Shown here piece by piece: positions 25,235 through 58,248 of a stretch of 64,000 bases of DNA. The stretch lies in the NCBI GenBank assembly GCA_046759445.1, contig JBHICG010000009.1, positions 1 through 64,000 on the forward strand, given 5' to 3'. The stretch's first letter is position 1, and every line of letters begins with the position of its first letter. Under the pieces are notes generated by a model. That model was not told the DNA's origin, did no database searches, and saw only the letters and a program-made list of their open reading frames with translations. Source of the DNA: Candidatus Scalinduaceae bacterium. Its GTDB lineage: Bacteria; Planctomycetota; Brocadiia; Brocadiales; Scalinduaceae. The translations under genes and the position numbers were made by a program.

Positions 25235-25615
25235 TTACGTATCTAACCCAAGAACGTCAACTATCTTTTCAACAATCTCATCAACATCAAAAGGTTTTGT
25301 CATATAAACGTCAACACCAACATCTCTCCCCTTCTGTTTATCAATTTCCTGCCCCATTGCCGTAAGCATTAAAACATAAATATCCTTAATTCCAAGCTTA
25401 TTCTTTATAGCATCACATAATTCATATCCATCCATTCCCGGCATCATTGCATCAAGAATGACCAGTTCAGGTTTTTCCTTTTTTATACACTCAAAAGCCT
25501 CTATTCCATCGCTCGCTATAAACAATTTTACACCTTTTTCTTCAAGCTCCTCGAAGGTTTGTTCCAGCAACATTCTCATCCCAGGCTCATCGTCTGCTAT
25601 CAATATCTTTGGCAT
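25235..25615 (-). CDS. Single-domain response regulator
   Basis: ILIADDE, ILDAMMP, MLTA and TKPF receiver motifs. Confidence 0.92.
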   Translation of the reverse strand: MPKILIADDEPGMRMLLEQTFEELEEKGVKLFIASDGIEAFECIKKEKPELVILDAMMPGMDGYELCDAIKNKLGIKDIYVLMLTAMGQEIDKQKGRDVGVDVYMTKPFDVDEIVEKIVDVLGLDT

Positions 25616-25910
25616 ATATTTTCCCTGCAAACGTTCGTAGCGACCTTATGGTCACCACGAATTATTAAAATGAATAAACAAATTGGACTCCCCGCAAAAG
25701 CGGGATTACTTCCTCCCTGTCTAACGTTCGCTTTATGTTATTCCTTCACTTTGTTCAGAACGGCGTCTGATCCCTTTACCTTATATCATCTAAGCTGAAG
25801 TCAGAGAATCTTTAATCAAGAAATATTTCGAATTAGTTTTTTTAAACTTGACAGGTCACCTATTAATTCGTTTCACGCAGCCCTTTAGAGCCGAACTCCA
25901 TACCCCCCCC

Positions 25911-25951
25911 CATCGCCCTTTGACAAAAATAAATCATGACAAAAGGGCGAT
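25911..25951 (-). terminator. Stem-loop just downstream of the 101-aa ORF
   Basis: ATCGCCCTTT...AAAGGGCGAT inverted repeat about 20 bp past the stop. Confidence 0.45.
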
Positions 25952-25970
25952 CGATGAGGCAAAAGCTCGA

Positions 25971-26276
25971 TTAAGCATCACAGTAATATTGAATGCCTTC
26001 CCACCAACAATCTTCATGATGAACCCACCATGTACATAAACATAAATTAGATTTTTTTGTTTTATACAACTTAATTGTCATTGTTGGTTCATTTACATCA
26101 ACACCTTCAGGTATTTCTTTATGCTGAAGTTTTTTTTCAACTTTATCAAAATTTAATGAATCTAAACTAGAAGTATCTTTATTAAGGATTTTAGGAGAAG
26201 AACCAGTAGCGTCAAACGAAAGAACTATTTTGGGTCTCCGATTTGCATCTGTAACTCTTTCATCATCGTTTTTCAT
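25971..26276 (-). CDS. Small hypothetical protein with Cys/Trp/His-rich C-terminus
   Basis: Strong RBS (AGAAAGGA) before ATG; tail CLCTWWVHHEDCWWEGIQYYCDA; downstream hairpin. Confidence 0.65.
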   Translation of the reverse strand: MKNDDERVTDANRRPKIVLSFDATGSSPKILNKDTSSLDSLNFDKVEKKLQHKEIPEGVDVNEPTMTIKLYKTKKSNLCLCTWWVHHEDCWWEGIQYYCDA

Positions 26277-26480
26277 TTTTTATTTCCTTTCTGATACGTA
26301 ATCCATAAATGTATGTTTCAATAACTACTTTGTTTGAAACCTCTAACGCTCTCATATTACATTCAATAAAACCACCCCCTCTTTCTTATATGACGGTTAA
26401 GGATTCTGCAAAATTAATCCAATAGCATACTTTATAATTTTGCAGAAATCTTTTATAAAGGTCATTAAATGATTCTAAAC

Positions 26481-26567
26481 AACCCTACCCGAACAAGTCG
26501 TACGTAGAATTCAGGCTAGGGTAATTCTCTGAATTACGTATAATTGCCTTAATTGCACGCTTTTCTA
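26481..26567 (-). repeat. Copy of dispersed GCAATT/AGCCTAAATTC repeat family
   Basis: Reverse complement aligns by eye with 37197-37306 and 51736-51816. Confidence 0.65.
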
Positions 26568-26837
26568 CGTGCATCGTAGCAACGATACTTAAAGAGTCAA
26601 GGGTTGTTTTTGAAAAGGCAAAAATACCTTGGCTGTTCCACTATTAGGTGTAACAGCCGCTTTGGTCTTTTATTTGTCAGGAATAATACCTAAAGGGTAA
26701 ATTTCTAAATGTTGTGTTTAAAAAGTGGTTACGATCTGGTCGGTATTAACTCTTATAATGAACGCTATAAATAAGAAAATAGCGGTCTGTCATTTTTATC
26801 CCATCTTCCGCGAGGATATACTCCATCACTTACATTA

Positions 26838-27032
26838 TCATTCCCGTGAAAACGGGAATCTAAAGCAGATTCCCGATCAAGTCCGGGTGTGATTCTGTCT
26901 GTCTTTCGGACAGTTTAGCAGAATCACCTAAGTAATTCCGCTTTTGCGGAATTGCCAATGACATTACTTGTTTGGAAATCTATATCAGATTCCCACCTGC
27001 CTACCGACGTCAGGCTCTCACGGGAATGACAA
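26838..27032. repeat. Cluster of CGTC-type REP-like hairpins
   Basis: TCATTCCCGTGAAAACGGGAATCT, AGATTCCC..., AATTCCGCTTTTGCGGAATT and ...CGGGAATGAC. Confidence 0.65.
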
Positions 27033-27060
27033 TTTGGACACTTTAAATTCACTCATGTAA

Positions 27061-27196
27061 CAAGTTAAGCTGCCTTTGGCAGCGACTTTCATACTCCCCT
27101 CTAAAAAGATGATCTGTGGGGGGTGTATAACCCTTCTTATGGAAGGGACGACATATCTATACACCCCTTAATCCCCTCTTTCTAGAGGGGAAACTA
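27061..27196. repeat. CCCCT-N-AGGGG REP-like composite; first 49 bp repeated at 30729-30774, last part repeated at 38685-38730
   Basis: CAAGTTAAGC..CCTTTGGC..ACTTTCA..CCCCTCTAAAAAGA; CATATCTATACACCCCTTAATCCCCTCTTTCTAGAGGGGAAACTAT. Confidence 0.7.
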
Positions 27197-27219
27197 TGAT
27201 TAAATTCCTAAACATTAAA

Positions 27220-30200
27220 TTAGTAAGAGAATGTAAACCTGGCAAAAATCAACTGATCAGGAGATATCACCGGATTTGTGGGATCCGTATCCTGAAACTT
27301 GAACTCTTCGTCGAACAAGTTTTTAGCTCCGATGCTGATGATGCCCCACCTTTTAGGTAAGCGGTAACTAATAGATCCATCGAATACCCAAAATTGATCG
27401 TCTCCCGGTACAACAAACGTACCTCCTGTAACGGGATCTCCAAATTTACCATCCTGATCAATATAGGTTGCCTTAAGCCGCGCGCTAAATCCCGAGGGGT
27501 GGAAAAAATTTATCCCCAGGGGCACACGGTTCGTTTTGATCTTGTGAAATGACTCTGGACCGAGGAGCCCTCTCGCCCTTTCAAGCCACTCATATTGATA
27601 TTCTGCACTAAGAGACAGCCAGCGATGAGGTGTCCAGTAAAGGTAAGCGCGTATCAGTTCTTCTTCTGAACCTAATCTACTGAACACAGTCGTTGTGGGG
27701 CTTGTTCGTATAAACGGTATTTCCATGTCCCGCCTGGAGTATTCCGCACCGCCATACAATGATTTTGAGAACTTCTGATCTACGGCAACACCGTAACGCC
27801 ATGCCTCTGTACCATTAGGATCGTCAAAAAACTGGTTAAAACCAGCCACCTGTGTGGGCTCAATGGTTTGATCCGACAGAAGCTGCCTTTTCAGGGTTCT
27901 AAATGCAGCGGCGCGGAGCGTAGTACCGGGAAGAAGGTCCCAGGTCAGCCCGAATTTCGGATTACCCTGGACATATTCCCTGACGATACCTTCGAAAAAA
28001 TCTACACTTCCTCCTATCGTCCAGGTAAAATTTTCCAGAAAATTAATCAATGAGTACACATAGAAGTTAGTATGTCGAATATCAAAATCTCCTTGTGTTA
28101 TTCTCGGTGGTTGCGGTGGTGGAAATGTGATAATACTGGTATTATTTCGTTCCGAGCTGTTACGCCCTATACCTCCGGTAACGTGAAATCGTCCCGATTG
28201 AGACCGATACAGATGCCGGATTTCACCCGTCCAGCCATCGTTTTCTAAATCGCTCTCAAAGCCGGGTGACATTCCTAAAGGTGAGGGAGAAGGACCTCTC
28301 AAAATATTTTTTGTGTCAGAATCTAGATTAAAATAGATGAAAGAGGCTATGAAATCTGAATTGGGCGTAAAGGAGTGATGAAGACCCAACCTTAGGTTAT
28401 CTACTTCGGATTCTTGCCTTTGGTCAGGCCTAAAATTATTCGGGTCGAACCTCAGTTCTAGATCTCCTTTCTCGGTATCCGTAAATCGATATTCTGCCTG
28501 CACGCTTGTCTTGTGCGATAGACTTGCCTGGAAGAATGCATTGTAAATATCCGTGTTCAGCCCATTATTTCTTCGGAATCCACCGGTCTCGTAATGGAAC
28601 TGACCCAGGCTATAAGACATCCTTCCCAGCACGCCTGATTGAACGAGATCATTACCCACAGTATCTCTCTCGGCTATAACACCGTTGGCTTGCAGCGCCA
28701 ATCGATTTCTATTAAAGAGCGGGTTATATTCGTTAAAGGAAGGATCTTGCGGACCAGACCCCTCCAGTATGAAGAGATTGCTCTCAGCGAGTTGGGGCTG
28801 AATCGGTGTGATGTTAATGGGCTGCAACAGTTGAGACTGTAAGAGTTCACTAACCCTGGCAATCTCGTGGCGCGGTAGAGCCGAATATGTATCCGCCAGG
28901 AATCTGTGAGCAGAATAATTGCTTGGATCAACATTAAGTGATTTCCAACCCTCTATCAGGGCTCGCTGTTGAAAACCCAGGTCTTTATAAATTCTGCCAA
29001 TACTGGCGCTTCGTGAAGCCAGGTCTTCATCCAGCAAAAGCCGTGACCTGTAAATTACCCGATTTTCATTTAACTCAATGGATTTCTGCATGTCATGCAA
29101 TGCCTCTACCGGGCGGTTCACGGTCTGTTTCCGAATCGCATCATAGAACCAGGGTGTTGGATCTTGCGGGTCAAGTTCCCTGGCAATGTCTAATTGACCT
29201 GACGCCTTTTTATCACGTTTTTCTTCGAAATAAGCCTTGCCAAGATAACTGCGGATAAGCGAGTTATTGGGGTCAAGAATTGCAGCTATCTCAATTTCAC
29301 CACGACCCTCTTTCAGGTTACCTTCTCTAATCTTTGCTAATCCGAGGCCCAAACGTGGGAGAGAATCTGCCTGATCCAGTTCGATAGCCTTTTCAAAGGC
29401 ATTCTTAGAATCACGAATCTTTATTTGAGTAAGATAAGCAAATCCCAAAACGGTTTGTGTGCGTGCCAGATTAGGATTCAGTGTTACAGCCTCCTGTGCC
29501 GCGTCACCTGCCTTATTGAGATATCCTTTGGATAGCCATAGTTCGCCTAATCTTGCCCACGCCAGGGCATTTGCTGCATCTCGCTTTACGGCTTCCTGCA
29601 GACTCTCTAGCGCCCCATCAATGTCATAATTGGCTTGCTGAGCATAGGAGAACGCAATTCGTGCAGTTGCTGAACGGGGATCTGTCTCAATAGCTTTTTG
29701 AGCAAGACTGAGAGCCCTGTCTTTATCATTTTGTGCCACAGCGATGATTGACTGAAGCGCAATGGCATGACTGTTGCCAGGTACTAAATTCAGCACCCGC
29801 TCGACGTCTAAACGTGCTTCATCAACACGGCCTACAGTGAGAAGCAACGAAGCACGATAGTTGAAAAAACGTGGGTCACTGATTTTCTCAGTTATTTTTT
29901 CAATACTGGAAAAAGCATCTTTTAAATCTCCCTTCCAATAAGACTGGATGGAATCTAGAACCATTGCCTGCCACTTCGTTTTACCAATATCCGGAAAATC
30001 TATAGTGCGATAATATATAACAGGCGGATAATAAAGCGCCCATTGGACTGCATCCCTGGGGCGCACTAAAATATACGGTACAGGCGCCTGCCCTGCCCTG
30101 GCTATTGCAGAGTGACCACTTTTAAGTGTAAGGCTACCCGCTTTATTCGTAGCTAACACTTGCCCTTCAAATACCGTAAGAGACGTTCTATCTACCCCAA

Positions 30201-30666
30201 CATTAACCAGGAATTCAGTACCTTCCACAGTCCCGTCAACAAATGGTGTTGTTACCTTTAATGTCCATGGCATGCGGCTTAGGAAGTGTACACCCCCTGC
30301 GAGTATATCAAGCAAAGAGAGTTTTTTCTTTTCCCTACCAGAAAAGGTTATTGTAGTATTCTCATTGAGACGAATGAGTGTATCAGTGCTAATGAGGATG
30401 GCTGCACGGCTTCGTTCCTGCACCCTGATCATGTCGCCAATGTTGTATGTATCATTTAATTTAATAGGTTTCCACTGCATTTCATCTTTTTTTTTGGCCT
30501 GTACGTTGCCTTGCACAGAAACAACTTTGGCCATCCATTCCTTACGTGTTTCTGCATCGGCTGAATCTGTAAAAAGCAACCCTACCGGTATGCTCAAATA
30601 TATTAGCAGGCTCAACTGACAGATTTGTATTTGTTTAATCACTTTTACTCCTTTGTATATCGTCAT
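27220..30666 (-). CDS. FecR-domain + TPR + TonB-receptor-like beta-barrel outer-membrane protein
   Basis: Signal peptide; FecR-like N-domain (VVSVQGNV...GDMIRV...VEGTEF...VFEGQV); about 8-9 TPRs; barrel ending ARFTFSY. Confidence 0.85.
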   Translation of the reverse strand: MTIYKGVKVIKQIQICQLSLLIYLSIPVGLLFTDSADAETRKEWMAKVVSVQGNVQAKKKDEMQWKPIKLNDTYNIGDMIRVQERSRAAILISTDTLIRLNENTTITFSGREKKKLSLLDILAGGVHFLSRMPWTLKVTTPFVDGTVEGTEFLVNVGVDRTSLTVFEGQVLATNKAGSLTLKSGHSAIARAGQAPVPYILVRPRDAVQWALYYPPVIYYRTIDFPDIGKTKWQAMVLDSIQSYWKGDLKDAFSSIEKITEKISDPRFFNYRASLLLTVGRVDEARLDVERVLNLVPGNSHAIALQSIIAVAQNDKDRALSLAQKAIETDPRSATARIAFSYAQQANYDIDGALESLQEAVKRDAANALAWARLGELWLSKGYLNKAGDAAQEAVTLNPNLARTQTVLGFAYLTQIKIRDSKNAFEKAIELDQADSLPRLGLGLAKIREGNLKEGRGEIEIAAILDPNNSLIRSYLGKAYFEEKRDKKASGQLDIARELDPQDPTPWFYDAIRKQTVNRPVEALHDMQKSIELNENRVIYRSRLLLDEDLASRSASIGRIYKDLGFQQRALIEGWKSLNVDPSNYSAHRFLADTYSALPRHEIARVSELLQSQLLQPINITPIQPQLAESNLFILEGSGPQDPSFNEYNPLFNRNRLALQANGVIAERDTVGNDLVQSGVLGRMSYSLGQFHYETGGFRRNNGLNTDIYNAFFQASLSHKTSVQAEYRFTDTEKGDLELRFDPNNFRPDQRQESEVDNLRLGLHHSFTPNSDFIASFIYFNLDSDTKNILRGPSPSPLGMSPGFESDLENDGWTGEIRHLYRSQSGRFHVTGGIGRNSSERNNTSIITFPPPQPPRITQGDFDIRHTNFYVYSLINFLENFTWTIGGSVDFFEGIVREYVQGNPKFGLTWDLLPGTTLRAAAFRTLKRQLLSDQTIEPTQVAGFNQFFDDPNGTEAWRYGVAVDQKFSKSLYGGAEYSRRDMEIPFIRTSPTTTVFSRLGSEEELIRAYLYWTPHRWLSLSAEYQYEWLERARGLLGPESFHKIKTNRVPLGINFFHPSGFSARLKATYIDQDGKFGDPVTGGTFVVPGDDQFWVFDGSISYRLPKRWGIISIGAKNLFDEEFKFQDTDPTNPVISPDQLIFARFTFSY

Positions 30667-30728
30667 TGCTCTCCCCTCCTATCTTTTATAATTCATCTTA
30701 GTGACAGGACAAAGGTAAATAAGGACGT

Positions 30729-30780
30729 CAAGTTAAGCCTTCGGCAACAACTTTCAACTTCCCCTCTAAAAAGAGGGGAA
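30729..30780. repeat. Direct-repeat partner of 27061-27109 ending in a CCCCTCT/AGAGGGG hairpin
   Basis: CAAGTTAAGCCTTCGGCAACAACTTTCAACTTCCCCTCTAAAAAGAGGGGAA. Confidence 0.7.
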
Positions 30781-30963
30781 GTATCATTGCTCCACGCTCT
30801 TTATTCCTCCCAGAGTTGTGGGTAACGATAAGCCCTGGGGGAGGTTAGTGTAAGTAGAAACTGTATTTTACTGATTTATAAGTAATCAAAATAGAAATCC
30901 CTATACAATCGAGTTGCCAAGCCAGCAAAAGTCTTAAATAATATTCAATAACAAAGCGCAAAT

Positions 30964-33192
30964 CTAAAATGCACTATAATTTTTGTCTATGCAAACTACT
31001 CCGTCCCACGATTCCTCAAATGACTTATTCCTGTATTGCTTGCATAATTTTACATAAAAGAGTGAAGGACTATCTTCTCCGAATCTTTTGATAATTTCAT
31101 AAAATTTCTCTGATGCCTCTTCCCATGATTGCCTCTTGAATGCATCGAGTGCATAAGAAAATAATTCACAAAGACTTTTTTGCATATGATTGGAATCTTC
31201 CTTACGACACATTAATTCATGTACAGCAATTGGTTTTGCTCTGTCAATCAACAGGAATTTTCCAAGCTCTCTTGTCAGGAAGCAATCAATATGATTCAGC
31301 ATCTCTTCTGATAACAATATCCGTACACCTAAGTGTTTATTCAACTTATCTATCGTTTTGGCTGTATCGATTATGTCTTCTACAGAGCAGTATTCATAAT
31401 GATCTTCAGCTCCTATATTATTGAGCAATATTCGTCCATAATGCATGCCAATACGGGTTGGTATCCAACTCTCACTGGAAGATTGATTATACCTATGAAG
31501 CGCTTTATCAATATCAAGCGCTGATAGGTAGGCCTCTTTCCTTGGATCAGCATCAGAGGTCATCCATATTGCTGTTATAGGGTTCTCTTTCACGTTAGTT
31601 ATGGTACCACCATGTTGCTTTACTGGTGCACAAACAACTTTATAGCATTTTTTGATTAAGCTCTTGAGTTTATTTGAATCTATAGTTTCAAATAGCGAGC
31701 TATATAAACAAGTTCCATAAACTTTTTGATTAATATCATTTGGTAGCTGATCTACAATAACATCAGGTAAGTAGTATCCGAGTCTCTTTCTTTTATTCTG
31801 TCGCTCATTTTTCTTATTATTATACCTGCATATTATACCACCTAAAAAAGCCATTGGCGCTTGACAAAATAAAGGGACAGAAAGAGGGTATAAAATACCA
31901 TTAGCCGTAAATTGATAAAGTGTTATGGTTAAATATATCACACTTACCCCTATGACACTTACTGCCGTGATAACAGTAGAAAATAGATAACAAAAAATGC
32001 CAATTATCACTCCCCACAGAAAAATAATACCGAGATATGCATAAAAACGTAATGGCTGAATATGTGTATTTTCGTATAGATTGGCGAATGCTGTTGCAGC
32101 AATTTCAACTCCGCTCATAGGAAATTCTTTTGATGGTGAAAAGACTATCTTAAAGCCGTCTCGTTGTTCTGGATACAAATGTTCTGAAGAACCAACAAAC
32201 ACGGCCTTGCCGTTAAAGTCTATATGTTTTTTGTTGACAACCAATTGTTCCGGTAAATTCAATACATTATAATAAGGAACAGTCGTAATAGTGTGTGGGG
32301 GTCCATAAAAATTTAAATATTGACTTTTGGGACTTTGGTACATCCGTATCAGTGATTTAAGGATATGGCTCTTTTTTACATCAATAGATAACATCTTTGA
32401 ATTATGTAACTCTTCTAGCATTTTTTCTGCAATCTGAGGGTCGTGTTCAAAGATATCTCTTATAATTTGAATGACCTTTATAACACCTTTGGTATTAATT
32501 ATTTCGTCTTTGTCTTCCGGTAGTCTATTAATTAAGGACGGAGTAAACTTTTTTAATAATTTAATAAAATCATCATAATCATTTAATGTGAAGATTTGGA
32601 ATACAACTATCGGCAGAGACGGTATATTTCCTGCAGATATCTTAAACGTCCAATACTGACTTACTTTTAAAGGTACTTTGGGTATAGGAAAAGGGGCCAG
32701 GGCAATTGAGGATTGCTTAAGAGTAGGAATTGGTTGCACTACTCTTTCAATATCAATATTCCCTATATTAGAACCATCCTCATCAGTCAAAAAAGCCTTC
32801 TCCTTCTTGATTTTTTCACAAAGGACAACGTTGCCTGCCTTGCTAATCGCTCTTGCAAATAAATTATCATCCTCTGTAGAACGAGTTTCATTAAACATAA
32901 CGTCGAATGCAATTACTACAGCGCCAGCCCTGACTAAATTATCGGTTAGACGAGCGTGGTAAGAGCGAGGCCATTTCTTAAGGTCGTAGGGTAGGCTTAA
33001 TTTGTCGGCAGAAAACTTATCCATGTTGACAATAATGACATCATGCGGAGGTTGTCTCTGTCCCCTCAGCTTAAAAAACATATCTATGTCCACATTTTCA
33101 TCGAAAATAAGCCGGAAAAGAATGAGACTAACCACCAAACCCGTTATGCCTGTAAGTAGGCCAAGAAATACCGCTTTCCATATATTGACCAC
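30964..33192 (-). CDS. CHASE2 + 3TM + degenerate class III adenylate/guanylate cyclase domain
   Basis: WPRSYHA, VIAFDVMF, NFYGP and SGVEIAATA CHASE2 motifs; cyclase scaffold (HGGT, TRIGMHYG, LNKHLGVRILLSE, WDGV) lacking catalytic residues. Confidence 0.85.
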   Translation of the reverse strand: MVNIWKAVFLGLLTGITGLVVSLILFRLIFDENVDIDMFFKLRGQRQPPHDVIIVNMDKFSADKLSLPYDLKKWPRSYHARLTDNLVRAGAVVIAFDVMFNETRSTEDDNLFARAISKAGNVVLCEKIKKEKAFLTDEDGSNIGNIDIERVVQPIPTLKQSSIALAPFPIPKVPLKVSQYWTFKISAGNIPSLPIVVFQIFTLNDYDDFIKLLKKFTPSLINRLPEDKDEIINTKGVIKVIQIIRDIFEHDPQIAEKMLEELHNSKMLSIDVKKSHILKSLIRMYQSPKSQYLNFYGPPHTITTVPYYNVLNLPEQLVVNKKHIDFNGKAVFVGSSEHLYPEQRDGFKIVFSPSKEFPMSGVEIAATAFANLYENTHIQPLRFYAYLGIIFLWGVIIGIFCYLFSTVITAVSVIGVSVIYLTITLYQFTANGILYPLSVPLFCQAPMAFLGGIICRYNNKKNERQNKRKRLGYYLPDVIVDQLPNDINQKVYGTCLYSSLFETIDSNKLKSLIKKCYKVVCAPVKQHGGTITNVKENPITAIWMTSDADPRKEAYLSALDIDKALHRYNQSSSESWIPTRIGMHYGRILLNNIGAEDHYEYCSVEDIIDTAKTIDKLNKHLGVRILLSEEMLNHIDCFLTRELGKFLLIDRAKPIAVHELMCRKEDSNHMQKSLCELFSYALDAFKRQSWEEASEKFYEIIKRFGEDSPSLFYVKLCKQYRNKSFEESWDGVVCIDKNYSAF

Positions 33193-33221
33193 TGCTCAAG
33201 CTCCTTTTACAAACAATAAAA

Positions 33222-49034: not shown

Positions 49035-49038
49035 TTTT

Positions 49039-49719: not shown

Positions 49720-49796
49720 AATGTTTACCTCCTTTAATTGTTTGTATAAGGTTCTGACAGTGCTCAATAGGTATTATGTGTGTTTTTCTTCAAAAA

Positions 49797-51467: not shown

Positions 51468-51650
51468 GATTGTGCCTTTACGTTTTCCTTACATGTTCAG
51501 GAATTAAAATCAATTGTACGTTCTTTCTTATCGCAAAATACATATATAAGATTCAAAAGCTTCTCGTTCTCACGTTGAGCGCCTGTCTGACCAAGTCTTT
51601 TGGACAGAAAACCTTAACTCCGTTTACAGGAATTTACCATTAGGAGTTAT

Positions 51651-51694
51651 CCCTTTACCCTGTGGAGTAATCCAGCCACTAACAGGGTGAAGGG
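51651..51694. repeat. REP-like hairpin
   Basis: CCCTTTACCCTGT...ACAGGGTGAAGGG. Confidence 0.55.
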
Positions 51695-51735
51695 TTTTAA
51701 TTAATTAAGGCATTGTGAGATCTTCCCGATACACA

Positions 51736-51816
51736 TAGAAAGGCTAAGGCAATTGCCTGAATTGCACCGAATTGCCTTAAGCTAAGTTTCGCTTCTGACT
51801 CGTCTGGTTTGGGGTT
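51736..51816 (+). repeat. Copy of dispersed GCAATT repeat family
   Basis: TAGAAAGG..GGCAATTGCCTGAATTGCACCGAATTGCCTTAAGCTAAGTTTC. Confidence 0.65.
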
Positions 51817-51855
51817 AATCCCATTATAGAATTATCTTGAAGAGGTATTATAAAA

Positions 51856-53952
51856 CTATTTCTCCTTTCCATTATTATCCAGCTCCGAGACGATATTTGC
51901 TAATTTCTCTAAATCCTTGTCTGCCATTTCTAACTTTTTCGCCTTGACAATCAATTGTCTTTGTAATCTTTTCTGAAAGGTTATATCCTTAGTTAAAAGC
52001 ACAAAACTATGTATTTCATCTCTTTCATCCCTAATGGGGTAGGTATATGCAAGAAAGACTCCATCTAAATTAGGGGCATTCACTTCTCCAATCTCTGGTT
52101 TTTGGGTTGTTGTACTTTTTGCAAGTGGGCAACTTTGCCAATGCTTATCATTGCAATGAAATAACTCATTGCATCTCATATTAGACAATTGTTCTTTGTT
52201 AATGCTAAATCTTTTTAAAAACGCCTTGTTTGCATTGAGGATCCTAAAATCCTTGTCGTGAATAGTTATAATATCCGTAATTGCATCAAATGTATTCTGC
52301 CATTCGTCTCTACTCCTCTTCACTTCTAGAAAAAGTTGAGTGTTCTTCTCGTTTGATTTCTTGAGTTTGTTCATCATTAAATTAAACGATTCTGCCAATT
52401 CTTTTATTTCACCCTTCATTTTAGTAATCACTATTGGATGATCTAAATCACTCTTTACTATCCTTTGAGTTCCTTCTAATAATTTCTTGATACATTTTGC
52501 TATCCCATTGGAAAGAAATACGGCAATCACTACTATAGCCATAATGCCAATAATCCCCATAGTAATGATGACGTTTCTTAAACGCACTATAGGAGCAAAT
52601 GCTTCTGAGACATCCTTTTCCGCTAATATAATCCAATCCATTTCTTTAAAATATATAGAGACACCAAGTATAGGAATGCCTCTATAGTCAGGATATATGC
52701 CAATCATCCCAACTCCATTATCTAGTGCAGACCGAACACCTTCTGTATTAACAACCTTTTTAAGGATAACATCTTTTATAAATCTTGATTCGGTAATCAT
52801 TAATTTATCTCTATTGACAACGTATAATTCTCCTGTCTCTCCCAGTCCTTCCTGCTGCATTAATTCACTAAATTCTTCCGAAATTCCACTTTGAGTAATT
52901 CTCCTAACGATATCACCGCTGTAACGATTAATGATTATGCCTATTGGCCTCATCCCATCCTTAATGGCAAGGAATCTTAAAACCTCGAATGTATTTTCAT
53001 TAAATTCTGGAGAGTAATGTATATCACTAATAATTGAAGAGCCTCTTGCCCTTATTTTTAAAAAAGACGATTCGCTTGAGATATCCCGGCCTATCTGGCC
53101 AATCTCAGAGGAACAGATTACTTTACCATTAAGATTAGTGACATACACCTCGAGAATATCAGGATCAAGGGGCTTCTTATATGTAGAAAGATAGGCATTT
53201 AATTGGTATATATAATAATTAATCCTATCTTCTGTCATTTCTAACTCTTCTGTGTAATCCCTGATATAGCTATCAGAGCTAAGTTCCCTTATATGGGCTT
53301 TATTTTTGGCTATTATTAATGGAAAATAATTCACTTCGGTCTCTCGTTGCGCTGTTACACTACCTTGCTTTCTATCATATCCTTGTTCAGCCTTGATTCG
53401 ACTAACAATGACCCCTATAGGCTGCTGTTCAGCACGGCTTAAGATTACTGTAGAAAAATCAATTACGACTCCACTTAAACGTCTATCATAATGTGGCCCA
53501 TCAGCAAACGCTCTTAATGGTTCTGCTTTTGAGAAATATTCTTCACTAGATAAGTCTCCACCTATTCTGCTTTCGTTTGTAGAAGCAATTACTCTACCAT
53601 TAAGGTTAATAATAAATACCTCAATAATGCTTGGGTCTAGAGACTTCTTTTTTGTAATAAGATATGTATTAATGTTGGCGGTGTAATGATTCTTCTTTCT
53701 TTCTTTTTTGATAAGTTTCTCTGTGATGTCTCTTATGAAATTATCAGAACTAAAATCATGGACACGATCTCTTTTTCCTCGTAAGAAAACATGTATTTTA
53801 TTCTGCAATTCGTCAGCAGCTATTTTTAATTGATTGAAGATATTTTGCTCCACCGTGTTTCTAACATAGAAATAACAGATTGATATCGAGACGGTTGCAA
53901 TTAAAATAGAAGGAATTAAAAACCAGAGTAATATTTTGTTTTTTATAGTCAT
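51856..53952 (-). CDS. Tandem-Cache-HAMP-PAS membrane sensor lacking a kinase domain
   Basis: Internally duplicated periplasmic module; C-terminus closely similar to 49797-51467. Confidence 0.85.
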   Translation of the reverse strand: MTIKNKILLWFLIPSILIATVSISICYFYVRNTVEQNIFNQLKIAADELQNKIHVFLRGKRDRVHDFSSDNFIRDITEKLIKKERKKNHYTANINTYLITKKKSLDPSIIEVFIINLNGRVIASTNESRIGGDLSSEEYFSKAEPLRAFADGPHYDRRLSGVVIDFSTVILSRAEQQPIGVIVSRIKAEQGYDRKQGSVTAQRETEVNYFPLIIAKNKAHIRELSSDSYIRDYTEELEMTEDRINYYIYQLNAYLSTYKKPLDPDILEVYVTNLNGKVICSSEIGQIGRDISSESSFLKIRARGSSIISDIHYSPEFNENTFEVLRFLAIKDGMRPIGIIINRYSGDIVRRITQSGISEEFSELMQQEGLGETGELYVVNRDKLMITESRFIKDVILKKVVNTEGVRSALDNGVGMIGIYPDYRGIPILGVSIYFKEMDWIILAEKDVSEAFAPIVRLRNVIITMGIIGIMAIVVIAVFLSNGIAKCIKKLLEGTQRIVKSDLDHPIVITKMKGEIKELAESFNLMMNKLKKSNEKNTQLFLEVKRSRDEWQNTFDAITDIITIHDKDFRILNANKAFLKRFSINKEQLSNMRCNELFHCNDKHWQSCPLAKSTTTQKPEIGEVNAPNLDGVFLAYTYPIRDERDEIHSFVLLTKDITFQKRLQRQLIVKAKKLEMADKDLEKLANIVSELDNNGKEK

Positions 53953-53959
53953 TTCTCGA

Positions 53960-54334
53960 TCATAAGAAAAAATTCGGTTTTGCTATAAAACCGTTAGCTC
54001 CATTTTTATAAGCCTCAGTAACTGTTTTTTTGTCATAACTCGTTGATACAACAAACACAGGGATTGAACGAAACTTTCTGTGGCCTTTAATAAATTTAAG
54101 GACTTCCAACCCTTTAACTTTTGGCAAATTAATATCCAATATAATCAATTCTATCTTAGAAATTTTCCCGTCATCTCCATTTGTGTAAATTTTCTTAAAG
54201 TAATTTATGGCCTCCTTGCCATTTTTAATAGAGATAATTTCGTTTTTATTGTCCTTTGCCTTAAGTTCTTCAATAATTAACTCAACATGGTCTGAATTAT
54301 CGTCTATTATCAGGGTTTTCTTCCTCAAAGGCAT
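53960..54334 (-). CDS. Single-domain response regulator (Rcp1-like), ends shortly after the KP motif
   Basis: IIDDN, ILDINLPK, VSTS, AKP; AAGGAG RBS before ATG 54334. Confidence 0.85.
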   Translation of the reverse strand: MPLRKKTLIIDDNSDHVELIIEELKAKDNKNEIISIKNGKEAINYFKKIYTNGDDGKISKIELIILDINLPKVKGLEVLKFIKGHRKFRSIPVFVVSTSYDKKTVTEAYKNGANGFIAKPNFFL

Positions 54335-54475
54335 ACTCCTTTTTATGCTATTTTTTTTTGATATTGTAAATATGATCTTTGATCTATTCACTGTGAAGTT
54401 CAACAATCTTTTAGATAGTTCCTCACATTTTCCACTTACTTCTTTTTATGCCATCGAAATACCTTACAGGTTTTT

Positions 54476-54841
54476 CTATCCGATCTTTGCTTTGACTTCT
54501 TCAATCAATTTTTCTCTCGTAAAAGTTTTATCAAGACACACAAGGTTTTTATCTATCTTCCTTAGGTCTTTATAGTCACGCTGTGGGTGGTTGCTGGCTA
54601 TAATAATTGGAATATCCTCGTATTCCTGCATACCCTTTAAGTATAGGAAGAATGTATCTCCCGTCATCATATCTAATGAGATATCAAGGATAATCAAATC
54701 AGGCTTCATTTCTTCCAGTTTTAACAATGCTTCATCTCCATCATAGGCATGAATTATTCCATAACCTGTGCCCTCTAGCATCTCCGAATAAAGTTCATGA
54801 AATGACTTTTCATCTTCTACTATCATTATGTTTTTATTCAT
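54476..54841 (-). CDS. Single-domain response regulator
   Basis: IMIVEDE, PDLIILDI, IPIIIAS; AAGGAGG RBS. Confidence 0.88.
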   Translation of the reverse strand: MNKNIMIVEDEKSFHELYSEMLEGTGYGIIHAYDGDEALLKLEEMKPDLIILDISLDMMTGDTFFLYLKGMQEYEDIPIIIASNHPQRDYKDLRKIDKNLVCLDKTFTREKLIEEVKAKIG

Positions 54842-55102
54842 TATTTTTACACCTCCTTCACATTTATAAAAATTAATTTTATGCCTTAGATTTACGAAAC
54901 CCTGTCAGCAAGAATATTCACTTTTGTCCCTATAATAAAATCAAAACCTCCCTGAGTAGCTTGTTTGCAGTCAGTGTGAAAGTGCCACTCTTTCTTTCAC
55001 GAGAAATGTAATTTACGTTTAATTCTAATAATTCGCGGCTATCCAAAGGTCATAAATGCTTTTTAATGACATCGATCGCTTAGGATTTTAAATTATTTAG
55101 TC

Positions 55103-55179
55103 TCTGCTGGTTCAATTGCCGTCTTCCTGCAATGGAGAGATGCGACCCCCTTCCATACATGACAGTTTAAACCAGCAGA
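55103..55179 (-). other. Long RNA hairpin in the predicted sigma54 leader (candidate sRNA or cis-element)
   Basis: 13-bp outer stem plus inner stems; G-U pairs favour the minus strand. Confidence 0.45.
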
Positions 55180-55270
55180 TGGAGTGTTTCAAGGATATTA
55201 TTTTGTACAACATCTGTTAACTCTTTGTGAAAATTATGGATTTTTTATTGCCAAAACCAAAAGCTAATAG

Positions 55271-55287
55271 AGCAAAAACAATACCAA
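55271..55287 (-). promoter_or_regulatory. Putative sigma54 -24/-12 promoter
   Basis: Minus strand TTGGTATTGTTTTTGCT = GG-N10-GC. Confidence 0.65.
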
Positions 55288-55368
55288 TATTTTTTTTAAG
55301 GATGGGAGATTTATAAGTATCTGTAAAATATAAAGATAAATTTCTGACTAGATTTCAATTTGATAATT

Positions 55369-55409
55369 TGTTACAGACCCGTAACAAATTTTGTTATAAA
55401 TCCATAACA
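55369..55409. promoter_or_regulatory. Tandem TGT-N12-ACA palindromes (putative bEBP upstream activating sites)
   Basis: TGTTACAGACCCGTAACA (55369-55386) and TGTTATAAATCCATAACA (55392-55409), 23 bp apart. Confidence 0.65.
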
Positions 55410-55685
55410 AATAACGTAGCGTATAATATTTTGAATATGAGTTTTATCAATTATGAGATGTTATATACGAAAGGAAAAATACTTATGGGGGAGTGAATAT
55501 CCTAGTAAATAAATATTAAGCAATCGCTGTTTAAAATATACAGGGACAAGTTTTGGTAAAAAAATGAGTGTTAGGCATTGGAGCTCCTACGCCTGTACAA
55601 AGGTATGCGATTAAGCCCTTTAGGGTTTATGTGGATTTTATCCTTCAGGATTTAATTCTCATCAAATAGTCAAATAAAAGGCTAA

Positions 55686-55712
55686 AGCCTAAATTCCACT
55701 TACGACTTGTTC
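55686..55712 (+). repeat. Tail-only copy of the AGCCTAAATTC repeat
   Basis: AGCCTAAATTCCACTTACGACTTGTTC vs AGCCTGAATTCTACGTACGACTTGTTC (reverse complement of 26491-26517). Confidence 0.6.
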
Positions 55713-55906
55713 AGCTTTGTGAAAGGAAACAATGAGTAATGTATGCATAGGCAATCAGAAACTGTCTGTGTTTTTCGATATGGTGGAGATTATGAGGGAT
55801 TACTCTGTAAACTCTTAGGTTTGATTTGCAACTTTATATTTAACCATTCGCAATCACTTTCTACTGTCAATTGCTAAACGTATCTTTGGTTACGGTTACA
55901 TCGTCG

Positions 55907-57400
55907 TTATGATTTAATCATTTCTTTCCAGTTTATGCCAAGCACATATATACGCTGTCTCATATTATTTTCCGTAATGCCAAACAGATCTGCCATATCC
56001 CGATATTTGAGACTGTTATTTTTTTTATCATTTTTAAGTCTACTTATACATCTTTGTAGTATTTCCTTCTGCCAATCTTTATGAGTATATTTTTTTATAT
56101 ATTCATTCCATTTGTCTTTCCCCCGCCACTTTTTCTCAAATATTTCATCTATGAGTTTTTCAATATCGAATGGGGGCTTATGTTTATTTTCCTTAACATC
56201 AATATCAAAATAGTCAGTTAACAAAATATTAGAATCACCAGCGTCAATCATGGCGCGGCGCACTGAATTTTCAAATTCTCTTATGTTTCCAGGCCATTCA
56301 CATTCGCTTAATAAATCCAGAACATCAGGCCTCAAATAATCTTTTTCTCCTTTTTTCGACTCAATAAGAATATTCTTATCATCTTCTTCTTTGAATTTTC
56401 TTATAAAGTAAGCAAGCAATTCAGGAATATCTTCTTTCCTTTCTCTCAAAGGAGGAAGATGAATCTTATACTGGATTAAACGATGAAAAAGATCTTCCCT
56501 AAAACTACCAATTTTTATTAAGTCCTCAATGTTCTTATTTGTTGCCGTAAGAACTCTAACATCAACCTTGATATCTCTATTCCCCTTCATCCTTCGAACT
56601 GTTTTTTCCTGCAAGACCCTTAAAAGCTGACCTTGCACTTCAAGTGATGCGTCACCTATTTCATCAATAAATACAGTCCCACCTATAGCTTCTTCAAATA
56701 TTCCTTCGTGGCTACTTTCCGCACCCGTAAAAGCACCCCTTTCATGTCCAAAAAGTTCACTTATAAGCATATTTTCTTTCGAAAAATCAGTACAACTTTT
56801 TGATACATATTTTCCATGACTTCTTTTACTCTTGTCTTTAATTGCCCTCGCCACCAACCCTTTTCCAACACCACTCTCACCCGTAATAAGAATTGTTGCA
56901 TTCGTAGAGGCAACATTTAAGATATCCATACAAACCTTTTTCATAGCTTCCGTTTTACCTATAACAAAATCAAACTCCTTTTGCAAAGACTCCATAGTTG
57001 CGTCTGATTTTTTTATGGCTCTCCTAATCTTCTCTGAGAACTCACTATACACATCGTCAGTACCTGATTTAAGCTGGTCCTTGGCATAGGCAAAAGCGCA
57101 ACCGGAATAGTCTTCAAGCTTGAAATCCTCTTCTGTCACTGTATTTGTGAGCATAATAACTGTAAGTTGAGGATATTTTGCTTTAATATTTCTAAACGTT
57201 ATTTTACCTTTCTTTATGTTGCCGAAACGGATATCAAGCAAAACGGCATTTGGCTTAAAAACATTTATCATCTTTAAAGCATTTTCTGCCTTTGTCTCAT
57301 ACTCAACTTCAAAGCCATTTTCTTGAAGTCCTGATTTTAGGACTTTACACCAACCCATTTCATCATCAACGAGCAATATCCTATTTTTTTTGCAATTCAA
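55907..57400 (-). CDS. Sigma54-dependent response regulator (REC-AAA+-HTH, NtrC family)
   Basis: LLVDDE/LLDI receiver, [26 protein letters not shown] and C-terminal HTH. Confidence 0.95.
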
Positions 57401-57851
57401 ACTTTATTGCCTCCAATTTATTTATTATATCTTTAAGAAGTCTTATCATGCTATCTCCATTCTCCAAGGCAGTATTCTTGTCTTTTTCAGAATACTCATT
57501 TGAATCATAAACAATATCATAAATGGTTTTATAATAATAATCCACCTCAAATAGTTGTCTAACGACATCTGTATATACATCTCTTGATACTTTCTCTAAT
57601 ATCTCTTTTCTTTTTTTTAATAACTCAATTTCTTTATCTATTCGACATTTTCCGGTTACAACAATAACGTCTCTCATATTTGCCCATCTTTTTTCTATTA
57701 CCTTTGCATCAGCAATTTTAAGCCGATTTATACTGGATGCGCTAAACCCCAGGATATTATTTAATCTATGGTTTAAAGTTTTTATGTTCTCAATATCCTC
57801 TTTTTTTGCCAGGGATTTATCTAAAGATTTTTCAATATTTGTGGTCATCAT
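57381..57851 (-). CDS. Hypothetical helical protein with H-box-like motif
   Basis: TLNHRLNNILGF resembles HisKA H-E-L-N-N-P-L; overlaps the bEBP start by 20 nt. Confidence 0.6.
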   Translation of the reverse strand: MMTTNIEKSLDKSLAKKEDIENIKTLNHRLNNILGFSASSINRLKIADAKVIEKRWANMRDVIVVTGKCRIDKEIELLKKRKEILEKVSRDVYTDVVRQLFEVDYYYKTIYDIVYDSNEYSEKDKNTALENGDSMIRLLKDIINKLEAIKFELQKK

Positions 57852-57954
57852 GAAAACTATTATTTTCTAATTCATATATGATGTTGTTTATACTCAGATC
57901 TCTTTTATCTAAAATTCAATATTTATATAGCTTATGAATGGGGAGCCAGTTACT

Positions 57955-58248
57955 TTATGGTATATAACCCCTTCTAATAAGTTCTTGACTCATAACCTCT
58001 AATTCTTTTTTAAGTCTGTTTATTTTATCAATGTCTCGACTACTATACTCAGTACCAACATACTCGTTGGGATTTCGTTGTTTAGGGTTGTAACTACCTT
58101 CACGTTTTACCATATAAAGCTTAAGGTCAGTGGCATAATATTTATCTATTAACTCTTTATCAGTTAGTTTTTCTACAGGTTTCAGCGCAGAACATGCATA
58201 AATCATAAATGGTATCAGGATAGTTATAATTGTTTTTTTCATTCCCAC
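57955..58248 (-). CDS. Hypothetical lipoprotein
   Basis: MKKT + hydrophobic stretch + IYAC lipobox-like motif. Confidence 0.6.
   Translation of the reverse strand: MGMKKTIITILIPFMIYACSALKPVEKLTDKELIDKYYATDLKLYMVKREGSYNPKQRNPNEYVGTEYSSRDIDKINRLKKELEVMSQELIRRGYIP

Follow-up and report, generated by a model that had tools for sequence, protein, structure and literature searches.

Published precedents exist both for the receptor layout that we call type A (PahS/PahP/PahK/PahR) and for the pairing of a CHASE2 receptor with an outer-membrane partner (NsrA-CyaK). Passages of Wang et al. (2023, PMC10570129) describe PahS, PahP, PahK and PahR of Cycloclasticus sp. P1 as a cell-surface sensing system, which, compared by gene content, resembles our locus in that a TonB-dependent receptor (TBDR), a transporter-less binding protein (SBP), a membrane histidine kinase (HK) and a response regulator are encoded together for sensing. 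Parts of PMC7529298 and PMC13001267 deal with NsrA and the CHASE2 adenylate cyclases CyaK, CyaD1 and CyaD2 of Sinorhizobium meliloti, an outer-membrane beta-barrel paired with an inner-membrane CHASE2 receptor; and sections of PMC9239204 report CHASE2 cyclase/FecR/TPR clusters in Campylobacterota. The locus also has points in common with NtrC/LuxO-type regulation, with FecA-FecR-FecI signalling and with the sCache_heme/Tll0287 (DUF3365) family.

The window, a stretch of 64,000 nucleotides from a Candidatus Scalinduaceae bacterium, holds about 21 minus-strand genes in the same orientation, nearly all of them sensory, the labels g1-g22 following the order of transcription on that strand. An earlier note had listed their content, and every listed item proved real by Pfam on minus-strand ORFs: the sigma-54 enhancer-binding protein (g3), stand-alone receivers (REC; g4, g5 and g22, all three retaining the acceptor Asp), kinases (g9, g13 and g18, each HAMP-HisKA-HATPase with the H-box SHELRTPL, by Pfam and residue check), output-less sensors (g6, g7 and g14, each Cache-HAMP-PAS and ending after the PAS domain), a heme-c protein (g8), TonB receptors (g10 and g17), binding proteins (g11, PF12974; g12, PF04392), a pseudo-cyclase (g19), a FecR-TPR-barrel protein (g20) and a small Cys/Trp ORF (g21). 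The claimed absence of ABC permease/ATPase, TonB/ExbBD and ECF sigma domains holds for all 50 ORFs scanned across the window (22 + 28). What did not survive is the idea of one co-inherited unit, which comparison with 40 relatives (draft genomes, 77-100% complete, and as kin not independent) speaks against. We consider it probable (roughly 0.6) that the block is specific to this lineage and grew by accretion of at least five signalling modules, each of them independently conserved, that it was inserted in a short spacer of a syntenic housekeeping locus, and that it was built partly by duplication of the genome's own sensor genes.

25193..57935, minus strand: lineage-specific block running from g22 to g2, inserted where a ~60-bp spacer otherwise separates a rhodanese gene from g1

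The two same-genus genomes (G001 and G002) carry CysS-rhodanese-g1-GT2-GlgA without the block, with about 1.8 kb from CysS to GT2, and blastn places one breakpoint right behind the rhodanese stop codon and the other shortly ahead of that of g1. The lipoprotein gene g1 (57955-58248) was rejected as a block member, since it occupies the same locus in these block-free genomes. It is very improbable that the block arrived in one piece as a horizontally acquired genomic island, or that it is an assembly chimera. The clean insertion would suit either, as would the G+C of up to 0.45 over g20 (about 0.37 around it) and the 50-70% identity of g19 and g20 to Desulfobacterota and Nitrospirota genes; but no integrase was found, no flanking direct repeat is evident in the junction sequences, the nearest tRNAs (19516-19753) are 5.5 kb off, and the closest paralogues or orthologues of most genes lie within the same family of genomes. 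Against a chimera in particular, an RNA-library contig belonging to a different data set runs across the right junction; the RNA evidence used here consists of assembled contigs of one study, which give neither strand nor expression level and may contain some DNA.

Paralogy is evident within the accretion. The receptors g10 and g17 are 80% identical, and a third copy on contig C13 is 77-86% identical to both (86% to g17); the kinases g9, g13 and g18 are 57-62% identical to one another (g18 and g13, 60%); g6 and g7 share 56% identity within their HAMP-PAS part, and g6 has a full-length paralogue on C58.

The genes of the receptor modules were identified by Pfam and, for g22, by orthology.

38690..46840, minus strand: type A core g10 (TonB-dependent receptor), g11 and g12 (binding proteins) and g13 (kinase), then g14 (Cache-HAMP-3xPAS, no output)
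33222..37225, minus strand: g17 (second TonB-dependent receptor) and g18 (sCache-HAMP kinase)
25235..25630, minus strand: g22, stand-alone receiver, orthologue of the receiver closing type A operons in relatives

Both receptors consist of plug and barrel. The type A order REC-TBDR-SBP-SBP-HK-REC, in which the SBPs are g11 and g12, is kept in all five fetched loci at 54-71% identity, and the type B order TBDR-SBP-HK in seven of eight, both same-genus genomes included; g22 is 55-67% identical to the REC right after the kinase in G003, G007, G010, G012, G018 and G019. An SBP match lies at most 1.4 kb from this TBDR, on the same strand, in each of the 21 family-level genomes that possess the receptor, by a distance count collated by hand, and RNA-library contigs bridge g12/g13 and g13/g14. 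The grouping of TonB receptor, periplasmic protein and sensor that the earlier note suspected is thus strongly conserved, and in the suspected order. Relative to the Pah system, type A has two unrelated kinds of binding protein, one PF12974-like and one of PF04392, its regulators are single-domain receivers without DNA-binding output, and its host is an anammox-type planctomycete, not a hydrocarbon degrader.

Such a gene set could instead serve nutrient or cofactor uptake, with a metal chelate, heme or corrinoid brought in by the receptors and binding proteins, and with kinases that do no more than regulate its import. In NCBIfam, g10 and g17 do come closest, below threshold, to B12, heme and siderophore receptors, g8 and g16 point towards heme or iron, and contig C32 carries one TonB_C gene and an ExbD gene that could energise the receptors. 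We find this reading quite improbable nonetheless: all NCBIfam receptor models stay below their cut-offs for g10 and g17, and in the five type A loci and seven of the eight type B loci the receptor is followed by SBP-HK-REC genes and not by permease/ATPase genes. A cognate importer elsewhere, which would have told against signalling, does not explain the binding proteins, because the organism's own 97%-complete genome has 0 matches to the PF02653 permease and no PhnE above cut-off (best 44.7 bits against 216.7). Use of a TBDR for signalling recalls FecA-FecR-FecI, as does the FecR domain of g20; however, neither g10 nor g17 carries an STN (N-terminal signalling) domain, no ECF sigma factor is encoded in the window, and the FecR domain shares one polypeptide with an outer-membrane barrel rather than belonging to an inner-membrane anti-sigma factor.

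Between the type A core and the head of the block lie two tight gene runs, identified by Pfam.

51856..54841, minus strand: g4 (REC), g5 (REC) and g6 (tandem Cache-HAMP-PAS without output domain)
54476-54841, minus strand: g4, stand-alone receiver
53960-54406, minus strand: g5, stand-alone receiver
47052..51467, minus strand: g7 (Cache-HAMP-PAS, no output), g8 (stand-alone heme-c Cache) and g9 (histidine kinase)

Gaps are 69 and 7 bp in g4-g5-g6, where an RNA-library contig bridges g4/g5, and 29 and 4 bp in g7-g8-g9. The product of g8 is Tll0287-like (E 3e-30) with a CLQCH motif, matching the CXXCH motif of the sCache_heme/Tll0287 family as set out in parts of bioRxiv 10.64898/2026.02.01.703092. 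Those parts state that stand-alone members of the family have no genetic association with signalling proteins; in contrast, stand-alone g8 sits 4 bp upstream of a kinase gene, and Tll0287-then-kinase pairs recur on C59 and C69.

A further pair was recognised from Pfam and from its homologue family.

27220..33192, minus strand: g19 (CHASE2 receptor with degenerate cyclase domain) and g20 (exported FecR-TPR-outer-membrane-barrel protein)

The pair is a conserved two-membrane module: of 68 loci that could be assessed, drawn from several phyla, 63 have a CHASE2 gene next to one for a FecR-TPR-barrel protein. Pairing of FecR/TPR and CHASE2 genes is widespread, the Campylobacterota clusters of PMC9239204 included. 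Among the 40 relatives, only G018 has a full-length g20 orthologue, beside a g19 orthologue, and fragments occur in G039 and G007. The C-terminal domain of g19 matches Guanylate_cyc at sub-threshold level only (E 0.021), and in the alignment its first metal Asp falls within a deletion, GD reads EN and N..R reads D..T. Judged by these residues, which are replaced or deleted, g19 is a dead cyclase, so that cAMP could not be its output and signalling would have to go by protein contact. It differs in this from CyaK; nor does the window hold a Crp/Clr-type regulator, and g20 fuses FecR, TPR and barrel in 1148 aa.

The head of the block, with its regulatory sites, is as follows.

57381..57851, minus strand: g2, 156-aa four-helix-bundle protein of a small family without Pfam match, overlapping g3 by 20 nt
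55907..57400, minus strand: g3, sigma-54 enhancer-binding response regulator, REC + AAA+ + HTH, by Pfam, alignment and REC residues
55368..55410, minus strand: two palindromes TTGTTA-N8-TAACAA, located 101 and 124 nt upstream of the promoter, to which g3 is predicted to bind (UAS)
55272..55286, minus strand: sigma-54 promoter-like site TGGTATTGTTTTTGC, 445 nt upstream of g4
55104..55178, minus strand: long conserved hairpin in the g4 leader

The g3 protein has a Sigma54_activat domain (E 6e-57), GAFTGA and Walker A motifs and an HTH-like C-terminus, and its orthologues occur in 5 of the 40 relatives (61-70% identity), each time with g2 upstream. The g2 family comprises only 13 clusters among 5.8 billion proteins; its alignment has invariant residues including His28, and fold searches with an AF2 model (pLDDT 90.8) returned generic helical bundles only. 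With its REC, AAA+ (GAFTGA) and HTH domains, upstream palindromes, a -24/-12 promoter and several kinases and receivers encoded nearby, g3 resembles NtrC/LuxO-type regulators; unlike these, it has no defined cognate kinase, no HPt domain is present, g2, to which it is translationally coupled, falls in no known family, and its predicted target is a receiver operon and not small RNAs or nitrogen genes.

G010 shares this architecture in the interval from the g3 orthologue to a g4-like REC, where the palindrome motif precedes the promoter by 125 nt; the arms of the leader hairpin are also conserved, with compensatory changes between the window and G010 (fold z-scores -4.5 here, -5.3 there). The combined promoter and UAS pattern occurs at only two sites in the organism's own genome, the second preceding a LuxR-type regulator on C47. 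A search of G009, G010 and G011 matched it 17 times, compared with 0 for the reversed control, whereas the strict promoter pattern had no match in G004 and G019, both of which have g3. In G009 and G011 the combined pattern falls inside a type A operon, directly after the TBDR, and in two relatives a promoter of this type precedes a prenyl-lipid-like operon placed within a type A module, which it is predicted to drive. The sigma-54 link is therefore real but narrower than the note had claimed, extending to g4 here and to the inside of type A modules in two relatives: g2-g3 do stand at the front, as "sigma54-headed" implied, but TGGTATTGTTTTTGC is the sole credible sigma-54 site upstream of any gene of the block.

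These results bear on the note's larger proposal, that the whole 33 kb is one integrated trans-envelope relay sensing a diffusible or surface cue, with all its genes inherited together and regulated together by the sigma-54 activator. The co-oriented signalling genes without transporter or enzyme favour it, as do the association of g3-type promoters with type A modules in the window, G009 and G011, and a partly similar accretion at G007:C14 (the end of g20, HK and REC; further on g11, g12, HK and REC). All five g3-bearing relatives also carry a g12-type (type A) SBP, which speaks for a degree of genuine coupling between the head and the receptor module. We regard a single relay as unlikely all the same. 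The block is absent from its locus in both same-genus genomes, and modules lie apart in relatives, g19-g20 being distributed on its own across phyla; island-type genes adjoin g2-g3 in only one of five relatives (G010, with a g4-like and a g22-like REC), and no relative has both g3 and g20 orthologues, so that the synteny proposed as a check found the genes unlinked. No sigma-54 promoter was found before g7, g10, g11, g16, g17, g18, g20, g21 or g22, and the block is broken by gaps of 211-1066 bp and by REP-like hairpins after g14, g19 and g20. A path from outer membrane through periplasm and inner membrane to cytoplasm is accordingly supported for single modules (TBDR-SBP-HK-REC and g19-g20), and not for the 33 kb as one relay.

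The remaining features are small.

38681..38740, no strand assigned: repeated palindromic element, REP- or terminator-like, just past the g14 stop
27152-27197 and 30759-30779: further copies of the REP-like element
37356..37865, minus strand: g16, weak rubrerythrin/ferritin-like protein (Pfam E 6.7e-6, 27 bits against a cut-off of 22.8)
25971..26276, minus strand: g21, orphan 101-aa ORF with Cys/Trp-rich C-terminus, without family

The REP-like element has copies at at least 10 other sites in the genome (blastn), and many RNA-library contigs have loose ends at 38681..38740. For g16, which is missing from the earlier gene list, the 40 relatives gave just two distant matches, and for g21 none; g21 may not be a gene. 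The ORF at 37858-38601 ('g15') is probably no gene, having no family, no relative and an odd composition.

Returning to accretion as the preferred reading, the backbone would be an expanded type A operon, which in relatives runs REC(g4)-(HK)-TBDR-SBP-SBP-HK-REC(g22) and whose order is kept here; g5-g8 would be insertions separating g4 from the g9/g10 pair, and g14-g21 insertions separating the kinase g13 from g22. We infer each protein-protein step, the ligand and the flow of phosphate to g3, and propose that g10 and g17 may let a ligand into the periplasm, where the transporter-less g11 and g12 would bring it to the periplasmic domains of kinases g13 and g18, which in turn would phosphorylate the single-domain receivers g22, g4 and g5. 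The heme-c protein g8 may modulate kinase g9, plausibly on NO or redox state, and g20 at the outer membrane might relay a surface signal to the CHASE2 receptor g19. These kinases could phosphorylate g3 either directly or via receivers and perhaps g2; g3 would then bind TTGTTA-N8-TAACAA and activate the sigma-54 promoters of g4-g5-g6 and of the C47 LuxR-type regulator. Co-orientation, several tiny gaps and the sensory nature of every gene make functional cross-talk across the whole block possible. The 33-kb block is nevertheless a patchwork peculiar to its species, made up of several sensor modules of already described kinds, each conserved on its own, and not one integrated signalling machine.

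The sensory genes studied here lie between plus-strand CysS and rhodanese genes (to 25182) and plus-strand GT2 and glycogen synthase genes (from 58440), an interval with 22 minus-strand ORFs. These are listed below in transcription order with their Pfam assignments (REC, receiver; TBDR, TonB-dependent receptor; SBP, periplasmic binding protein).

Minus-strand ORFs of the interval
g1, 57955-58248 (-), lipoprotein-like, without Pfam family
g2, 57381-57851 (-), without Pfam family
g3, 55907-57400 (-), REC, Sigma54_activat and lid
g4, 54476-54841 (-), stand-alone REC
g5, 53960-54406 (-), stand-alone REC
g6, 51856-53952 (-), Cache-HAMP-PAS, output-less
g7, 49797-51467 (-), Cache-HAMP-PAS, output-less
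g8, 49039-49767 (-), Tll0287-like, CLQCH
g9, 47052-49034 (-), HAMP-HisKA-HATPase
g10, 44753-46840 (-), TBDR, plug and barrel
g11, 43569-44441 (-), PF12974-like SBP
g12, 42586-43614 (-), PF04392 SBP
g13, 40924-42576 (-), kinase
g14, 38690-40918 (-), Cache-HAMP-3xPAS, output-less
"g15", 37858-38601 (-), probably spurious; no family or relative, unusual composition
g16, 37356-37865 (-), rubrerythrin-like, weak match
g17, 35081-37225 (-), TBDR
g18, 33222-34874 (-), sCache kinase
g19, 30964-33192 (-), CHASE2
g20, 27220-30666 (-), FecR-TPR-barrel
g21, 25971-26276 (-), orphan Cys/Trp ORF
g22, 25235-25630 (-), REC

Pfam thus confirms the genes of the earlier note, which had described an almost wholly sensory run; since none of the 50 window ORFs scanned carries an ABC permease or ATPase, TonB, ExbB/D or ECF sigma domain, that inventory is correct. 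Against NCBIfam, no island protein scored above the cut-off of a protein-specific model, and the generic PAS-domain model TIGR00229 passed its own for g6, g7 and g14 only. The sole ORF in the 1.6 kb between g22 and g20 (25631-27219) is g21, which has a long N-terminal part and a Cys/Trp-rich end; comparison with 40 genomes yielded no relative, and g21 is either a very young small protein or not a gene at all. Upstream of the block, squalene-hopene cyclase (10030-12069) and DUF3463 radical-SAM (8833-9831) genes form a hopanoid-related housekeeping context. An 819-aa ORF with an HZS_alpha domain, like the closest named g19 homologue (Ca. Scalindua), agrees with a Brocadiales affiliation.

The block is not a conserved unit; its modules are each conserved separately. 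Both same-genus genomes (G001 and G002) have the order CysS-rhodanese-g1-GT2-GlgA at this locus, with the block absent. Nucleotide homology ends about 10 nt past the rhodanese stop and restarts just before the g1 stop, and g22 to g2, about 32.7 kb, stand in place of a spacer of about 60 bp. The restart of homology assigns g1 to the flank, where both block-less genomes keep it, and the span first proposed (25235..58248) was therefore too long by that gene. Among the 40 relatives compared, g3 orthologues (61-70% identity) occur in five (G004, G009, G010, G011 and G019) and a full-length g20 orthologue in G018 only, G039 and G007 having fragments, the latter's at the end of a contig; no relative has both g3 and g20. 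The proposal that a sigma54-headed stretch of about 33 kb forms a single relay from outer membrane to cytoplasm is supported for individual modules but not for the whole, because the block is absent from congeners and its modules lie apart in relatives.

Much of the block has close copies in its own genome. The TBDRs g10 and g17 are 80% identical, and both match another copy, on contig C13, at 77-86% identity; the kinases g9, g13 and g18 share 57-62% identity with one another, and g6 and g7 share 56% in their HAMP-PAS part. Comparable runs of sensors, kinases and receivers are found on contigs C22, C38, C55, C58, C59 and C69. The genome is rich in such arrays, and a large part of the block appears to derive from duplication. 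Hallmarks of a mobile island were sought: Pfam finds no integrase domain in the block, and no flanking repeat is evident in the junction sequences. The closest tRNAs (two, at 19516-19753) are 5.5 kb off, and are the only Rfam matches at the gathering threshold, with nothing inside the block.

Two kinds of receptor module can be recognised, and in both the TBDR-SBP-sensor triads suggested by the earlier note do behave as modules. The type A order, REC (g4-like), in two of five loci an extra histidine kinase (HK), TBDR, g11, g12, HK, REC (g22-like), is kept in all five loci fetched (G003, G010, G012, G018 and G019; identity 54-71%). The window retains this order (g4, g10, g11, g12, g13, g22), with g5-g8 inserted ahead of the g9/g10 pair and g14-g21 ahead of g22, parting the terminal receiver from the kinase g13. 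The type B order, TBDR-SBP(PF04392)-HK, is kept in 7/8 loci; stand-alone RECs come next in six (G000:C13 of the own genome, G001, G002, G004, G010, G018) and a sigma-54 activator in the seventh (G030). In the own genome (C13, 59809-61965), G010 and G018 the type B receptor is also directly preceded by UbiA and FAD-reductase genes, and in G019 by UbiA with a radical-SAM gene; a UbiA/FAD-oxidoreductase link to type B receptors, found at 4/10 type B loci only, was not counted as evidence.

The receptors themselves are convincing TBDRs, with plug matches at E 2e-19 (g10) and 3e-22 (g17) and barrel matches at E 6e-53 and 7e-52, and they can be energised, since the own genome has one TonB_C gene adjoining an ExbD gene on contig C32. 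An SBP match lies no more than 1.4 kb away on the same strand in 21/21 same-family genomes with this TBDR, by a count collated by hand. Such pairs might serve import, through a cognate ABC transporter encoded elsewhere. PF04392 proteins pair with permeases of the PF02653 type, for which the own genome has no match, nor does it have any PhnE match above cut-off; at 97% completeness these absences are not absolute. The lack of either permease, together with the invariable kinase neighbour, favours sensing rather than import, as was originally supposed. In layout the modules match PahS/PahP/PahK/PahR, which likewise combines a TBDR, a transporter-less SBP, an adjacent membrane kinase and a regulator (PMC10570129). 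What is new relative to this TBDR-SBP-HK-response regulator kind is the use of two SBPs with a receiver-only output. Unlike FecA/FecR/FecI, g10, g17 and g20 have no STN match in Pfam, and the window has no sigma-70 r2/r4 protein. Among the literature matches listed, none was specific to a TBDR with a periplasmic binding protein, histidine kinase and PF04392, and none described an anammox module of TonB-dependent, two-component and sigma-54 parts.

The g19-g20 pair is another separately conserved module. Its CHASE2 match in g19 has E 9e-30, and g20 combines FecR, TPR and a TonB_dep_Rec barrel. The g19 family is a large one of CHASE2 and Guanylate_cyc proteins of about 750 aa, with the closest named homologue in Ca. 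Scalindua; the Pfam cyclase match is absent from g19 and its five closest relatives, g19 scoring 14.9 bits against a cut-off of 21.9. Class III cyclases depend on Asp/metal and Asn/Arg catalytic motifs. In the alignment, g19 has six residues deleted where homologues have the first Asp (..TDAEQYT..), has EN in place of GD at the second, and has D..T in place of N..R of GDIVNTASRIE. Judged by these motifs, g19 is predicted to be unable to make cAMP, which bears out its earlier description as a pseudo-cyclase. A profile search with the alignment as query (the g19 sequence by itself returned none) gave 80 loci from Desulfobacterota, Nitrospirota, Brocadiaceae, Binatia and others. In 63 of the 68 that could be assessed, having at least 400 bp downstream, a g20 homologue directly follows the CHASE2 gene; it lies elsewhere in the locus in three and is missing from two. 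On the Desulfonema magnum chromosome (L068, 6001-9033) CHASE2 is joined to a histidine-kinase part instead of a cyclase and followed by a receiver, with the g20 homologue divergent and upstream, so that the pair exists there in a variant with kinase output.

The pair resembles NsrA with CyaK/CyaD1/D2, where an outer-membrane protein is likewise paired with a CHASE2 protein (PMC7529298, PMC13001267), and also the CHASE2-cyclase/FecR/TPR clusters described in Campylobacterota (PMC9239204). It differs from NsrA-CyaK in that g19 has no catalytically competent class III cyclase domain and that a Crp/Clr-type regulator domain occurs in 0/50 scanned window ORFs. The dead-cyclase CHASE2 receptor is what is new relative to the known pairs.

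A further input may be provided by the heme-c protein g8 and the kinase g9. A Tll0287-like gene stands directly ahead of a histidine kinase gene three times in the own genome (g8-g9, C59:11583-14966 and C69:8999-10468). NO is an anammox intermediate and, as signalling-fused Tll0287 domains are reported to sense NO, it is a reasonable guess that g8-g9 senses NO or redox. A preprint on sCache_heme/Tll0287 describes the fused domains as NO sensors and stand-alone members as having no link to signalling genes, whereas here the stand-alone g8 type does adjoin kinase genes, in all three cases (bioRxiv 10.64898/2026.02.01.703092).

How far, then, does the sigma-54 activator g3 preside over these modules? 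It has the features of an NtrC-family enhancer-binding protein: AAA+ motifs (GAFTGA, Walker A), a phosphorylatable REC and an HTH-like, DNA-binding C-terminus. The genome has rpoN, and a predicted -24/-12 promoter with sites upstream of it lies nearby; no NCBIfam equivalog at cut-off names an orthologue. The predicted promoter, TGGTATTGTTTTTGC (55272-55286), lies in the 1066-bp gap ahead of g4, with two TTGTTA-N8-TAACAA palindromes 101 and 124 nt upstream. In G010 one such palindrome lies 125 nt ahead of TGGCATCAATTTTGC, between the g3 orthologue and a g4-like REC. This promoter is the only sigma-54 match with supporting context, the consensus (2 mismatches) not being enriched in the window (46 matches against 35.8 expected; 5/100 shuffles reached 46). 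Between promoter and g4 there is a long leader hairpin (55104-55178, minus strand), which recurs in G010 (L004, 6751-6820) with compensatory changes (z -4.5 and -5.3), and which may act as an RNA regulator or as a palindrome to which a protein binds. Scans for sigma-70 promoters (53 against 57.5 and 47 against 51.0 in the two halves of the window) and terminators (17 against 14.3 and 12 against 7.7) gave counts at shuffle level and so are no help in defining operons.

The palindrome-plus-promoter pattern occurs twice in the own genome, ahead of g4 and at C47:195. It precedes no other island gene. The C47 site (C47:1-330, L037) precedes an ORF truncated at the contig end, whose 210-aa homologue in G009 (L126, 618-1247) begins with a Cys-rich pseudo-receiver and carries a GerE/LuxR HTH, and which is likely a downstream regulator of the g3 system. 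Matches in the g3-bearing relatives number six in G009, two in G010, nine in G011 and none in G004 and G019; a reversed-pattern control gave none in any of them. The pattern is absent ahead of the type A operons of G003, G010, G012, G018 and G019. Two of these relatives, G009 and G011, have a site directly past the type A TBDR, where the operon is split by 10-19 kb. The G009 insert (L132, G009:C8 4870-13872) encodes a CrtC-like lipocalin, a UbiA prenyltransferase, a GGR/lycopene-cyclase-like flavoprotein (FAD-reductase), a B12 radical-SAM enzyme, a PhoD-like phosphatase, a HAD hydrolase and a HAMP-PAS protein, and at the corresponding position in G011 the first gene is again this CrtC-like one. 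Further sites precede a PhoD-like gene, two more sigma-54 activators, the pseudo-receiver/LuxR regulator and a 172-aa ORF without Pfam match (N-terminus g16-like by eye) followed by a g8-like gene. Because sites lie inside the type A operon in G009 and G011 and a g12-type SBP is present in 5/5 relatives with g3, g3 appears to be functionally tied to the type A receptor module and not to the 33 kb as a whole. Relative to known activators, the novelty of g2-g3 would be a defined predicted site able to sit inside a receptor operon.

The small gene g2 precedes and overlaps g3 in 5/5 relatives with g3; island-type genes (g4-like and g22-like REC) follow the two in G010 only. Its family is small (13 clusters in 5.8 billion proteins), and His28 is invariant in 18/18 aligned sequences within an H-box-like LNHRLNN motif. 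The AF2 model is a confident four-helix bundle. No family match was found in Pfam or NCBIfam, nor a usable one in the ESM Atlas; the best Foldseek match in the PDB (E 7.9e-3) was to designed bundles, and the best wide VIA-align match (Z 13.4) is at noise level for helical bundles. It is an attractive idea that g2 may act as a phosphotransferase linking the receivers to g3, but it may equally be an anti-activator.

Two metatranscriptome runs of one study contain near-identical contigs over 29/30 (X1) and 18/30 (X2) bins of 38300-58299, spanning g1/g2 (the right junction), g4/g5, g12/g13 and g13/g14. These contigs are assembled, carry no strand or level information and may include DNA, and are read here for presence only; their uncovered bins and depth figures are not interpretable. 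A 211x depth spike at 38300-38966, where there are also many loose contig ends, is due to a palindromic repeat element (GGGGTGTGT..ACACACCCC then CCCCTCTTTTTAGAGGGG) with at least 10 more copies in the genome. This REP- or terminator-like element adjoins the 3' end of g14 (38681-38740) and that of g20 (27152-27197), and also lies between g19 and g20 (30759-30779).

On a bolder and less likely reading, with a probability of roughly 15%, the block would be a phosphorelay hub with several inputs, found in only a few anammox-type planctomycetes, which feeds one sigma-54 activator and senses or controls a membrane lipid or signal derived from prenyl compounds. As inputs it would have three kinases supplied by TonB-gated SBPs, a heme-c (NO/redox) Cache protein and the dead-cyclase CHASE2/outer-membrane sensor, and these would pass phosphate to single-domain receivers. 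From these it would reach the activator through g2, acting as a new His-bearing four-helix-bundle phosphotransferase. The activator would then switch on its own sensory operon and the LuxR-type regulator; its targets in relatives would include the CrtC/UbiA/FAD-reductase/B12-radical-SAM lipid operon that lies within the receptor module.

Modules of all these kinds are already known; the variants are new. Ligands and wiring of TBDR/SBP/kinase triads and of CHASE2/FecR modules are largely unknown in general, and both kinds have unusual outputs here: single-domain receivers, a dead cyclase and a sigma-54 activator with a definable predicted site. Many sensor genes in a row do not necessarily make up a single machine, which bears on how similar "islands" are read. 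The hosts are anammox-type bacteria, in which regulation is difficult to study, and the predicted g3 site (TTGTTA-N8-TAACAA with a -24/-12 promoter) defines a directly testable regulon; the prenyl-lipid-like operon inside the receptor module of relatives gives a hint as to what these modules could be sensing or controlling.
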